DNA of 64,000 nt from Felis catus (lineage: Eukaryota), in assembly GCF_018350175.1 (NCBI RefSeq), contig NC_058369.1:8990001-9054000 (forward strand). Reading direction: 5' to 3'. The position numbers were made by a program, and so were the translations under genes. Within the stretch, counting starts at the first letter, position 1. Every line of letters starts with the position of its first letter. Shown here piece after piece: positions 41,236-47,200 of this stretch. The notes under the pieces are model-generated. The model ran no database searches. It was not told the origin of the DNA and was given only the letters and a program-made list of their open reading frames with translations.

Positions 41236-44200
41236 CGTGCACTGGATATGGAACATAGTAGAAAGACCTAATAGAGAAACCTGGGCTACGTCTCAGGTTA
41301 CCAAGGCACGTGCCCTCTGAGCCACCATTTCCACTTTCGTGACAAATTCGCACACAAGCGAAATGAGGCGTGTGCAAGGTTTTACTCTGCTGCACTGTTG
41401 GCAATCGCAGATACCTAGGATGACTTAAACACGTGAGGCCCTTCGCAAAGAAAGGCTACAGGCCAGCCCTTCTGGATTGAAATTTTACAGGTGAATCAAG
41501 CCCTAATGTTTCCATATATCCATCCTCTGTAAGGAAATAACTTTTTCCGTGCTCCCGGCGGGCGCAGGCTACACTCCATCCTTGGTGGAACTGAGATGGG
41601 TCACACAAGTCATTTTCTGGGAGGCCCGATTTCCCCATGGACCCCCAGTTGACAAAGGCAACAAAAACCGATTCATATGGCGACGTTCCCCAGCCGTCTT
41701 CTTAAGGAGGAGAAGCCAAGTGCAGACTAGCAGATAGCCCGTTACCTTTCACGTAACTAAGGAATCAGAATAAAAATGTATATTCATATTCATTTGCATG
41801 TGCTTAAAAAACTTTGTAAGGATTGTTGTAATAAGCTAATATGAATGGGGGTGGGGTGGAAACTGAGTCAATGGGGGGACTAAGAGGTATACCCCTTCTC
41901 TCTATATTGCTCAGTATATAGATCTCTATATATCTATTTTTAATAAAATGTATTTGTTTTGAGAGACAGAGAGAGAGCGAGCAAGCAGGATAGGGGCAGA
42001 GAGAGAGGGAGAGAGAATCCCAAGCAGGCTCTGCACTGTCAGTGCAAAGCCCGATGTAGGGCTCGAACTCATGAACTATGAGGTCGTGGCCTGAGCCGAA
42101 GTCAGATGCTTAACCAATTGAGCCACCCAGGCACCCTATATTTTGGTTTTTAAGGTATGAATGTAATAGCTACTTAAGGTAGTTTTTTTTTTTTTATTTT
42201 TCGAAGTTTATTTATTTATTTTGAGAGACAGAGATGCAGAGAGAAAATCCCAAGCATGCTCTGTGTTGTCAGTGGAGAGCCCAATGTGGGGCTTAATCTC
42301 AACATTGTGAGATCATGACCTGAGCCAAAACCGAGTCGGGTGCTTAACCAACTGGGCCACCCAGGCACCCCAAAATATTTTTTTATTAATTTTTTTTTAA
42401 TGTTTATTTAATTTTGACACAGAGCATGAGCAGGGGAGGAGCAGAGAGAGAGGGAGACACAGAGACACAGAACCTGAAGCAGGCTCCTGTCTCTGAGCTG
42501 TCAGCATAGAGCCAGACATGGGGCTCAAACTCATGAACTGTGAGATGATCACCTGGGTGACTCAGTCGGTTGAGCGCCCAACTTCGCTCAGGTCATGATC
42601 TCACAGTTCGTGAGTTCGAGCCCTACATCGGGCTCTGTGCTGACAGCTCGGAGCCTGGAGCCTGCTTCGGATTCTGTGTCTCCCTCTCTCTCTGCCCCTC
42701 CCCTGTTCATTCTCTGTCTCTCTCTCTCTCAAAATAAACAAACATTAAAATAAAATGAAGTGAAAAAGTAAAAGGCAACTGTCATTTGGTCATGCTACCT
42801 TACTGAAACTCCCTCCATGGCTCCCCATTGTTCCCCCGAAACAGTTCTTACTCCTTCCCTTGGCTCATGAGACCCTACTTGATCTGAACCTTCTATGTTT
42901 TGGCTTATTGCTTCTCCTCATATGACACCCAGTGTCCCCCACACCTGTGCCCCAGACTTTCCTCCCACCCGAGTGCCCTCCCTCTGGGACTCACAGATGC
43001 TCCTCCAGCTTCCTCTTCAGTAGGGTGGACTGGGGGAGAGAACAGGCACTGGGTGAATGGGGGGCCCAGGCGTCCCAACTCCATCTTGGGGTGAGGGTAG
43101 AGGGTGCCACCCTGGGCCCACGGTACTTACGATGGACTGCAGGGGGCATCGAGCAGCAGGGAGGAGAGAGAGGAGGGTTACTGGGGGGCACGAGGGAGGG
43201 CCAGGCAGGGAGGAGGTGGGCACTCACATCCTCCGTCTTGCCCCCCTGCTCTTGCAAGGCCTTCTGTAAGTCCTCCACCTGGGCCCGCAGCTCCAACAGC
43301 TGCTGCTGGTTCAGCCTGCAGGAGTGCGGGGCCGCTCAGTGCCTGCGCCCGCCCTCCGCCCCGCACCCCACGCCCCCTCCACGCGGACCCCCCCCCCCCC
43401 CCCGGGGTCCTCACCGCAGCTGCGTCTCCAGCCCGTGGCGCGCGCGGTTGGCCTCCTCCAGGTGGCGCTGCAGCTCCTCCTGCCGCTCCCGGTAGGCCGC
43501 CTCCTGCTGGCACAGCTGCTTGTTCTCCAGCTGAAGCCGCAGGAGCGTCTCCCTGCCGACCGGGGAGTGAGCAGGGCTGGAGACAGGTCAGCCCGCAGGC
43601 CTGCCGGGGCTCTGGCGGGGAGACTGGGCGGACAGGGCTAGCAGAGGGACAGAGCCCCGGGGAAGAGCCCCGTTAGATCCTAGGGAAGGGTCAGAGTACT
43701 GGGGACCCGGCCTAGGCGTGGGTGGGCAGAGCGCCGGGGAACCAAAATGGGCGGGGCTTTGAGCTGGGCCTGGGGGTGGAGCCAGGCGAGGGCGGGGCTA
43801 CAGGAGCAGGTTAGAACCTTCCTGAAAGCAAGACTGCGGGAAAGCAAGACGCAGAAAGGGGAAGAACTGGGGTGGGGGAGTTCATCGGGGCAGGACAGAG
43901 GGCACTGCACCTAACAGGGTCTACAGTGAGGGCAGGGCTATGCCCTGGGGGCAGAGTCCGACGGTGAGCAGGGCTGAGGGTAGGATTTTTTGTTCGGTGG
44001 GTGGAGCCAGATGGGTTGGACCTAATTTGTGCGGTGAGGATGGTTCCCGGAGAGGCAAGCTGGGGCTAGAGGGCTTGCCTCCAGGCAATAGGGCTAGAGC
44101 TCCCGCCAAATAAGGGCAGAATTAGGAGTGAGTGGGCCTAGGAGCCAGGGGAGGACTTGGGAACCCAACACAGCAGGCCAGGCTAGTAGTAGGTGCCTGC

Positions 44201-47200
44201 ACTGGGGGCGGAGCTGAGGGTGAGCTCTGGGTGCAGCTAGACCTCGGAGCGACCCCAGGATACCTCAGCTCCGCAGGTAGGATCTCTGCTGCCAAGTTTT
44301 CCACAGCTGGTGAGGTGGGATCCAGCGAAGGGTCTGGAGAGTGTGAGAAATGTCTTCAGGTTCCTGCACAGCTCCTGCCCCCATCCCTAGGGTTCACTTT
44401 CCAAGAGTCATCTTTGGGGACTCAAGTTCGACCAAAAGACTGGGTTAACATAAGCCTCACCCCCCAACCTGACAGCGGGCGGTGATGCCTGCCCCGAGTT
44501 TGCCCTGATCCCCAGGGACGGCCCCTGCCATTTCTTTCCGTTCTAGCCTGTCTCCGAGGTGGCCTAGATCTGCCCCCGGCCTGGACAAGGCCTGGGACGC
44601 CTTTTCTGTCTGCCCTAACGGCACCTAAGGCTACCCGTGCCCCAGGCCCTTGGGATGACAGGCCTCCAACTCACCGGCCTGGGTCAGCCCCCGAGGCTGC
44701 AGCTGGGCGCAGCGCAGTTCCTCATTGGCCTCCCGCAGGGAGTCCCGCTCTGCCAGCAGCCGCTGGAGGACGGGGTGCAAGACGCCACTTGAGGCAGGGT
44801 TGGCTTCCTGGGGACTGGGCTATGCTAAGATGGACAGGGTGGGGCTTGGACGCGGGACTTCAGCCTCACCTCCTTCTCCTTTGTCACCAACTCATACTTT
44901 TCCTCCAGGTTTCGACACTCGAATAGCCACTTCTCGGCCTTCATGGCCTCCTCCTGTCGCTGGCCCTGAAGTTCCTGAACCTGAACACCGAGGACGGGTG
45001 AGAAAGCGGGGTTTGGAGGAGGCGCAGGGACTGAATACAAGGTGAAGGCATCGGGCCCCGCGGGACCAGACCCAGCGAACTTGGAGGGGCGGGGCTTACA
45101 AGCCTAGGGAGGAGCTGGCCTGACTGAAGGGCGTTACCTACATATAAACGAGGGGGGGAGGCTAGGGGCTCAGCAGCACGCTGAGGGCCCACCAAAGCGA
45201 AAGGGGCGAGGGGTCCAGCGGCCTAGAGCACCACGCCCTCCGGGCTCTGCCCTGATCCCTGCCGCACCTGTCGTCGCTGTGCCTCGAGCTGGGCACGCAG
45301 TGAGCCGGCCCGGCGTAGCTCGTCCTCCAGCTGCCGCGTGCGCTCGGCGTGGCCCGCGTTACGCTCCTCCAGCTGCCGCACCTGCCGCCTCAGCTCCCGC
45401 AGCTCACCCAGGCGGCGCCGGCAGCTGCTCAGCGTGGCCTCCAGCTGCCCGGCACGCTCAGAGGACTGCCTGGGGGAGGAGGCAAGTCGGGAGAGGAGGC
45501 CTGGGTCTGCGGTCAGGGTTCAGCTTGGCTCTGAGGACCCCCCGGGTAGGGGAAGGTGTCATGTCACCTGGGGATGTAGGGGTTCAAGGTGGTGGATCAT
45601 GAGGGTCAGGAGCCAGCCAGGGCCTGGTGTTTTTTTGGGGGGTGGGAGGGGTCTTTAGGGGGCGCAGAGGGAGCCCTAAGTATCAATTGTTGGCCCAGGG
45701 TCATAATCAGGGTTCCTCAGGGGCGGGAGTGAATAGAATGACTGAGGCGTTACAGGGGGAATGATGGGGCCCAGAGGCTCTGAGGAACCCTCAAGGACAC
45801 TTTGAGGTTACGAGGTGGCTATGGGATCAAATGAAGGCACGGTGAGGTCCTTCAGGGCAGAGCGCTATGCGGTCAAGATGCAGCAGGGATTCTCTAGACA
45901 CTCTAACATTACAGGGGTGCTGGGGGTCACAGGAGAGCCTTTAGAGGTTACAGAAGACACAGGGAAGTCGAGGGAGTGGGTGATGGGGGGACCCACCAAG
46001 TGCTTTGGGATTGCAGGCGTGCTGTGGAGTCACGGGAAGGAAACGTCCTATCATGAGGGGGCACGGATGGGTGAAGAAGGGGGTGGCAAAGTTATCGCAT
46101 TTGGGGTCCTGGAGGGAGCAACGGGATCCTGGGGCGTGATGGCCCCTGGCCAGCACTGGAGCAGGGGCGGGGGGCTGGTAGCTGGGGTCGCGGGGATGCT
46201 ACAATGTCTGGGGAATATAACGTGGGCTCAAAAGGGCACACTATGAGGTCCTGGGGGGCACCATAGAAGCAGGGATCCTGGTGGCACCCAGAGGACATGG
46301 TGGAGTCCAGGATGGTGCGGTGGGGTTCAAGAGCTGGGCCTGGGGGTGGAGCCAGGCAAGGGCGGGGCTACAGGGCAGGTGAGAACCTTCCTAAAAGCAA
46401 GACTTCGGGAAAGCAAGACGCAGAAAGGGCAAGAACTGGGGTGGGGGAGTTCATCCTTTATGAATGTTCTAACCTGCTCCTGCGGCCTTGCCCTTGCCTG
46501 GTTCCCCCCCCCACCCCACCCCCCACCCCCCCAGGCCCAGCTCAAAACTCCGCCCACTGCACCATCACTGTGGAGTCTAGGGGACACTGGGAGGGTTCAC
46601 CGGGCATTTGGGGGGTTCTGAGGTACTATGGCATCAGAGGGACGCTGCGGCAACGACAGTAGGCAGGGGGGGACCCGGGGACCCACCACTCACCGCAGCT
46701 CGTCCATCTCATCCTTCAGGGCCTGCGCCTCCTGGGCCAGACTGGTCAGTGCCTGGTTCCGCTGCTGCAGCTCAGAGACCTCCCGCTCCAGCTCGGCACA
46801 GTGCAGACGCTCATCTTCCCTGCCGTTCTCCAGCCTGGAGGGGTAGGGACGGAGGGGGCGCTCGAGGGGGCTGGGCCCACGCCAATCCCCTGGCCTGGGG
46901 CCCAAACCCCGGCTCGCCGCACCTGAAGTTCTCCTCCTGCAGCTGCTCCAACTGGGACTGCAGCAGCAACAGCTTCTTAGCAGTGAGGCCAGTGGCACCC
47001 TCACCCTCTGGCCGGCCCACCCGTTCCCGAAGCACCGCGTTCTCCTGTGCCAGGCTCTGCTTCTCCTCGGACAGGAGCACCAGCTGCCAGCAGGAGGCGC
47101 AGATGAGCTGGAGTTTGGAAGGGAAGGAGGCAAGCAACCCGCGCTCCCCTCTCCGCCAGCCTCAACCTCACCTGCCGCTCCAGGTCCAGACAGTGCTGCC

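Follow-up and report, generated by a model that had tools for sequence, protein, structure and literature searches.

The analysed window is a 64,000-nucleotide (nt) stretch of the domestic cat (Felis catus) genome (NCBI RefSeq assembly GCF_018350175.1, contig NC_058369.1, forward-strand positions 8,990,001–9,054,000; coordinates below are positions within the window). Its minus strand carries HOOK2, organized into 23 exons, all with AG/GT ends, whose exon-model translation is 719 amino acids (aa) long. Pfam HOOK_N or HOOK was matched in 5/5 exons tested, and the translations of exons 9 and 11 are identical to felid-named HOOK2 proteins. Introns 10 and 14 of this gene harbor three copies, termed A, B and C, of a single unique intronic stretch. 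These copies probably arose through two linked copying slips and are predicted to give a mostly local RNA hairpin, whose influence on splicing is probably slight or absent. The surrounding exon models, all on the minus strand, are exon 10 (46694..46834, 141 nt), exon 11 (45268..45469, 202 nt, also placed by protein identity), exon 12 (44870..44980, 111 nt), exon 13 (44675..44762, 88 nt), exon 14 (44264..44333, 70 nt) and exon 15 (43415..43552, 138 nt). As the original prediction stated, exons 11–14 form an in-frame block (202+111+88+70 = 471 nt), and a direct exon 10-to-15 join keeps an open frame with a 562-aa product. This phase match is weak evidence, since 96 of the 231 internal exon blocks of HOOK2 are in frame.

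Copy A (43748..43886, plus strand, 139 nt) is located in intron 14, where 377 nt separate it from the donor of exon 14 and 195 nt from the acceptor of exon 15. Copy B (46331..46455, plus strand, 125 nt) lies in intron 10 and is a direct repeat of A 43761–43886; alignment of the two gave 95.2% identity over 126 columns, with the 5 substitutions and 1 indel predicted for an element of ~125 nt shared by the two introns. Copy C (46456..46556, minus strand), also in intron 10, is inverted and matches A 43748–43826 or the first half of B. It differs from A by 12 substitutions in 79 columns. Two blocks were aligned: C 46462–46511 matches A 43772–43821 in inverted form at 84%, and C 46528–46556 matches A 43748–43776 at 93%. 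The blocks are separated by a tract (46504..46532, minus strand) that is G-rich in the RNA, 21 nt longer in C than in A and B, and predicted to form a G-quadruplex (G4Hunter-type score 3.47). Against B, C differs at 9/65 columns, in addition to this 21-nt G tract. An inverted copy following B after 10 nt had been proposed; the copy is there, but the spacer is not, since 46456–46465 aligns to A and B. Alignable sequence extends to 46457 within this interval, and C directly adjoins B. The proposed 13-nt reach of C into A-only sequence was also recovered, with 11/13 bases matching.

The flanks of B and C are related as well. The left flank of B (~46303..46330, plus strand) contains the right flank of C (~46557..46575, minus strand) in inverted form, together with an altered version of the first 13 nt of A. 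This pair of flanks aligned with a local score of 27, reached by 0/3000 intronic 30-mers, whereas the flank of A scored only 10 in the same comparison. The right flank of C has no counterpart beside A and adds ~16 pairs to the C:B hairpin. A 12-mer at 46301..46312 (plus strand), with a near-palindromic core, recurs as a direct repeat at 46571–46582 (10/12) and possibly marks a switch-back site or a target duplication.

These flanks bear on the template of C, which the original prediction took to be A-like because C carries A-specific bases. Among the 66 columns common to the three copies, 12 are variable, of which 8 are C-specific, 2 are B-specific and 2 are A-specific, one of the latter hinging on the alignment. 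A and B disagree at 4 columns; C has the base of A at 2 of these and that of B at the other 2, so that the claim stands for half of them. The A-like template itself was not upheld: C bears, inverted, the intron-10 flank of B, and A has neither flank. The template of C is therefore most simply the forerunner of B in place, and C was likely templated in intron 10 rather than by A. The excess of C-specific changes gave P = 0.019, or a borderline 0.056 after correction for the choice of copy, and C may on this borderline signal be either older than the other copies or the product of error-prone copying.

Genome-wide comparison agreed with the earlier view that the element is unlike the dispersed repeats of the region. 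A DNA search of the cat genome, which skips very common words, returned 3 matches; a 26-nt pattern allowing up to 2 mismatches found 2 genome matches, and a control pattern found 0. No further long match was detected at word size 7 in the 864 kb around the window. The many copies elsewhere that characterize a dispersed repeat were thus not found, and a three-copy arrangement of this kind in unique sequence is uncommon. Intronic complementarity alone is common, as inverted pairs of any class of at least 60 nt are present in 69/269 tiles of 3.2 kb nearby. In Rfam the gathering score was not reached; the best hit, MIR1858, was rejected as a generic hairpin match (31.5 bits vs a threshold of 137).

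Two linked slips would account for the arrangement. In one, a duplication of the repair type, involving introns 14 and 10, would produce the A/B pair; in the other, a fold-back template switch would copy the first half of B and its flank backwards, directly beside B, to give C. Two orders of events can be proposed from the sequence. One has the intron 10 copy derive from A by way of a TGGG overlap of 4 nt, with a fold-back during that error-prone event yielding C; the other has B native, C as the older fold-back and A copied afterwards (or A and B since homogenized). TGGG is common to the start of A and the flank of C, and no microhomology is evident at the other end. By Markov composition scores, introns 10 and 14 could not be told apart as the native site of the element. 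The search for outgroups found 0 matches to a 22-nt core in metagenome contigs, and a protein scan for exon 11 gave 597 pattern matches, with 0 confirmed.

The A/B duplication resembles the proximal repair-mediated duplications described in PMC2671141, which lie less than 5 kb apart, have a mean size of 162, a median of 147 and a maximum of 619 bp, and number 192 cases in dog. Taking as class limits the same chromosome, a distance within 5 kb and a size of 50–619 bp, the A/B distance of 2.6 kb and the copy size of 126–139 nt fall inside the class. Shared features are the intrachromosomal position and the absence of a polyA tail, and possibly a short overlap at one junction; no polyA/T tail or other mark of retrotransposition was seen in the sequence after A and B. 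In contrast to the cases presented there, the HOOK2 copies lie in unique intron DNA rather than within a transposon, are joined by a second, inverted copy carrying the acceptor's own flank, and have only a proposed direction and a presumed empty site (PMC2671141).

For C, the proposed template-switch or fold-back origin fits the finding that C adjoins B and carries its flank inverted. The layout is that of a 3-2-1-4 switch, in which C begins at the end of B and copies its first half and left flank; such switches make up 31% of the high-confidence human–chimpanzee events reported in PMC5453318. As in the 3-2-1-4 and 1-4-3-2 forms of that four-point model, an inverted copy of the upstream neighbor sits at the switch point and yields a hairpin with a spacer. 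The model's fragments, as presented in PMC5453318, are short and perfect, whereas C spans ~120 nt, is 15% diverged and has an expanded G tract; nor does the model cover a 2.6-kb jump between introns. Near-perfect identity of copy and template is not found in C, which would thus work like a 3-2-1-4 switch without being a clean member of the class and would suit an event that was either old or prone to error. A single multi-switch event of the MMBIR type (break-induced replication mediated by microhomology), as outlined in PMC8421209, would likewise yield B, C and the shared flank, but the excess of changes in C (8/12, P about 0.06) fits an older age equally well. On balance we regard the locus as real, uncommon and assignable to known mutation classes, and as likely to be neutral. 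It would then represent an uncommon example of two such classes combined in unique intron DNA, with the mechanisms and the order of copying suggested by sequence comparison and neutrality suggested by the decay between paralogous copies only.

The geometry of RNA pairing was as predicted: in sense RNA, C can pair with either B or A, and C (intron 10) and A (intron 14), being reverse-complementary, flank exons 11–14 in the manner of a circular RNA (circRNA) locus. The comparison of C:B and C:A energies, suggested as a check, gave a divided answer. Predicted core duplexes favor A (C:A −134.9 vs C:B −104.2 kcal/mol), while flanked duplexes tie (C:A −136.9 vs C:B −135.1 kcal/mol); for the outer part of C the local partner is the stronger (−70.1 vs −63.8 kcal/mol with A). 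Folding of the 3141-nt stretch bounded by exons 10 and 15 predicted a hybrid, with 28 bases of C paired to A and 52 to B and its flank. A full C:A or a full C:B duplex was rejected, as both were worse when forced (−1234.7 and −1241.0, respectively) than the free fold (−1267.0). The hybrid surpasses the best fold devoid of C:B pairs by 15.3 kcal/mol, a small margin on a total of −1267. When G-quadruplex terms were added, the fold became all-local in 3/4 parameter sets. B is transcribed 2.6 kb before A, and in 4/4 folds of transcript prefixes ending before A exists, 37–39 bases of C (its inner half) paired with the first half of B. C would accordingly be expected to pair with B once B is transcribed, and at most ~29 outer nt of C could shift to A. 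The models therefore allow a possible 29-nt long-range helix and do not predict an either/or switch, with an outcome that depends on the model chosen. The local hairpin had a z-score of −4.0, which is expected from any such duplication and was not counted toward function. Limits of structure modelling of this kind, and the tendency of structures to stay within one intron, are discussed in PMC10691357.

Signs of selection on the pairing were then sought among the copies themselves. Comparing C with A at this paralog level only, 10/12 substitutions break pairs, 2/12 produce G–U pairs and 0 are compensated, in addition to the 21-nt bulge; the compensatory substitutions that distinguish functional RNA structures were not found. 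Compensation and conservation are the marks of functional pairs according to PMC8052449, which adds that there is frequently too little variation for them to show. The arrangement resembles known competing pairings, including ATE1 R1/R4–R3 (PMC7797038), the conserved complementary regions of PMC8052449 and the competing complementary intron sequences of circRNAs (PMC7521338), in that one arm has a near and a far partner and the far pair encloses exons. It differs from these systems in that exclusive pairing is not predicted for HOOK2, compensation is not seen between its paralogous copies, and the exon 10–15 product is absent from the proteins listed.

Protein models were examined for products of the exon 11–14 region. 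Among proteins of at least 400 aa from an exon-9 search (best 120 of 432 matches), 104/105 run on into exon 11, the lone exception among the matches listed being a tenrec model. The exon 10–15 junction occurred in 0/234 proteins among the matches listed, including 38/39 felid-named ones readable there; 120 of the 234 came from an exon-11 query that is unable to show a skip, 15 of the 62 proteins in one large cluster and 15 of the 32 in another were covered, and such lists are blind to circles or rare forms. For human samples, PMC4370497 remarks, as 'data not shown', that HOOK2 alternative splicing was absent. A literature search on HOOK2 splicing, isoforms, circRNA and exon skipping found no title or abstract opening on the repeat or on an exon 11–14 product, although supplementary circRNA catalogues could list HOOK2 circles. 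Exon 14 encodes LAAEI (aa 448–452), the same pentapeptide as the Spindly motif of HOOK3 (454–458), which is reported to bind the dynactin pointed end (bioRxiv 10.64898/2026.04.25.720804; PMC7655957; PMC12157435). By analogy LAAEI may act as a Spindly motif in HOOK2. A protein lacking exons 11–14 would be deprived of it and probably activate poorly, a reason to doubt that skipping is extensive.

Variation at the exon 15 acceptor was observed in felid-named models, which use additional acceptors 24 nt upstream (+8 aa; 19 proteins) or 87 nt upstream (8 proteins, from Panthera and Neofelis, with the frame later shifted). These are the sole splicing peculiarity confined to felids that was noted near the element. 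Intron read-through in protein models of other species stops short of A and B. In the RNA sense, A and B contain pyrimidine-tract-AG sites at 43769, 43833 and 46339, which score 9.7–10.6 against 6.0–17.3 for real acceptors, on a matrix trained on HOOK2's own acceptors; no protein model uses these sites or contains A or B as an exon.

Several observations weigh against a neutral accident with a mostly local hairpin. Without G-quadruplex terms, 28–30 nt of C paired with A across exons 11–14 in 4/4 parameter sets, the hybrid also prevailed in the ensemble with a C:A pair probability near 1, and its lead over the best fold devoid of C:A pairs was 9.4 kcal/mol, although this margin too is small on a total of −1267; with G-quadruplex terms, one of the four sets still gave 63 C:A pairs. 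On matrices trained on HOOK2 itself, the exon 14 donor has the lowest score among the 22 donors, and the exon 15 acceptor is one of the weaker ones. The upstream acceptors, located at the 3′ end of intron 14 (43553–43641), appear in 27/39 felid-named proteins and in 0/164 non-felid proteins with the exon 14 motif, counts in which felid models are redundant, multiplied by isoform combinations, and drawn from felid clusters selected on purpose. The rarity of the arrangement weighs here as well: non-dispersed direct pairs of at least 40 nt, separated by more than 100 nt and at most 5 kb, gave 3 alignments at only 2 loci in 864 kb, this locus included. In 639 kb remaining after dispersed-repeat masking, 27 inverted matches were found and 23 removed as low-complexity; C:A and C:B account for two of the 4 retained, which leaves just 2 complex pairs elsewhere. 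Finally, the empty site, direction and age of the copies stand as proposals from a single genome.

The folding results bear most directly on an alternative with the same accidental origin, in which the long-range C:A helix yields a measurable but unselected exon 11–14 circRNA or skip in felids, kept low because B captures C first. The helix of 29 nt (−63.8 kcal/mol) predicted in all sets lacking G-quadruplex terms speaks for this account; cross-intron pairing is described as promoting back-splicing and within-intron pairing as favoring linear splicing (PMC7521338), and exons looped out by conserved pairs are reported to have lower inclusion (PMC8052449). We nevertheless judge it unlikely, given that B is made 2.6 kb earlier, that three of the four sets with G-quadruplex terms fold locally, and that no skip appears among the listed proteins, though such lists would miss circles and rare forms. 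Taken as it is, the locus offers a modest natural experiment on whether a decoy arm close by abolishes pairing with a distant one. The original prediction, read as a selected switch, goes further: by pairing with either B or A, C would control in-frame skipping of exons 11–14 or a 471-nt circle. Its geometry, near-equal duplex energies and open skip frame fit, and ATE1 provides a precedent for competing intronic pairings (PMC7797038). If true, a dynein adaptor would be regulated through RNA pairing by an element that is lineage-restricted and not a transposon, with a predicted non-activating HOOK2 isoform devoid of the Spindly motif. The proposal was not supported, and we consider it very unlikely: folding predicts a mixture of both pairings instead of a choice between them, no compensation accompanies the decay of the arms, which also have a 21-nt bulge, 96/231 blocks are in frame regardless, the product would lose LAAEI, and a skip occurs in 0/39 felid-named proteins despite the recording of minor acceptors in them, part of this list deriving from the exon-11 query blind to skips. 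A composite version, in which a felid copying accident built a three-arm RNA switch, with the G-quadruplex-prone tract splitting C so that its outer 29 nt swaps from B to A and loops out exons 11–14 or shifts the exon 15 acceptor, is improbable, if a little less so; its HOOK2 product would retain the dynein light intermediate chain (LIC) and cargo ends without the dynactin-binding Spindly motif.

An effect on acceptor choice could also come from the intron 14 copy, or from a C:A helix ending near it, moving exon 15 recognition to the sites 24 and 87 nt upstream. The felid-only distribution of these acceptors agrees with this, A ends 108 nt before the farther one, and the pyrimidine-AG sites in A score 10.6 and 9.7, within the range of real acceptors. 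Gene models are redundant and felid clusters were chosen on purpose, however; AG dinucleotides present only in felids would account for the pattern without A, and neither A nor B is an exon in any protein, leaving this account a slim chance. Three insertions of a dispersed repeat, either with few copies or strongly diverged, are highly improbable as the source of the element: the genome search does skip very common words, but the 3 genome matches, the 2 pattern matches and the lack of a further long match in 864 kb all point away from it, as do the missing polyA tail and the flank of B carried by C, unexpected from independent insertions. A local misassembly of B and C might be feared in a GC-rich region with a G tract, yet the copies differ by 5–15%, unlike duplicated reads, and word shares in sequencing runs speak indirectly against a joint loss of B and C. 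Absence of B and C would drop 256/3871 31-mers and hold the word share of a run to at most ~0.934 (27/410 sampled words expected), whereas shares of 0.96–0.99 were found in 14/14 DNA-type runs listed, which are best holders by selection, with even word sampling assumed. Six of these runs, from 4 studies outside those flagged as possible sources, gave 0.96–0.97; three RNA runs with shares of 0.16–0.20 were set aside. The caps are 0.960 without B alone and 0.966 without C alone, so that loss of a single copy is compatible with the observed shares, and a list of best holders is uninformative on polymorphism. Misassembly of B and C is given almost no weight. The two-slip origin with a mostly local hairpin thus remains the preferred reading.

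Other features of the locus were noted. The context of the exon 14 donor (44258–44266) is read through in a dolphin model; the weak donor is therefore probably older than felids. The sole other direct-pair locus in the 864 kb, at G000:C2 ~9392964–9393446, comprises 92 nt at 98% with a period of ~390 nt. Intron 18 (41937–42754) contains copies in both orientations that we take to be SINEs, including a head-to-head pair 23 nt apart; their duplexes reach −226 and −231 kcal/mol and so greatly exceed C:A and C:B in stability. Exon 17 is a 6-nt microexon (43131–43136) with AG/GT ends. A mouse Hook2 isoform pair is described as differing by 2 aa (PMC11554263), a difference that may correspond to this 6-nt exon.

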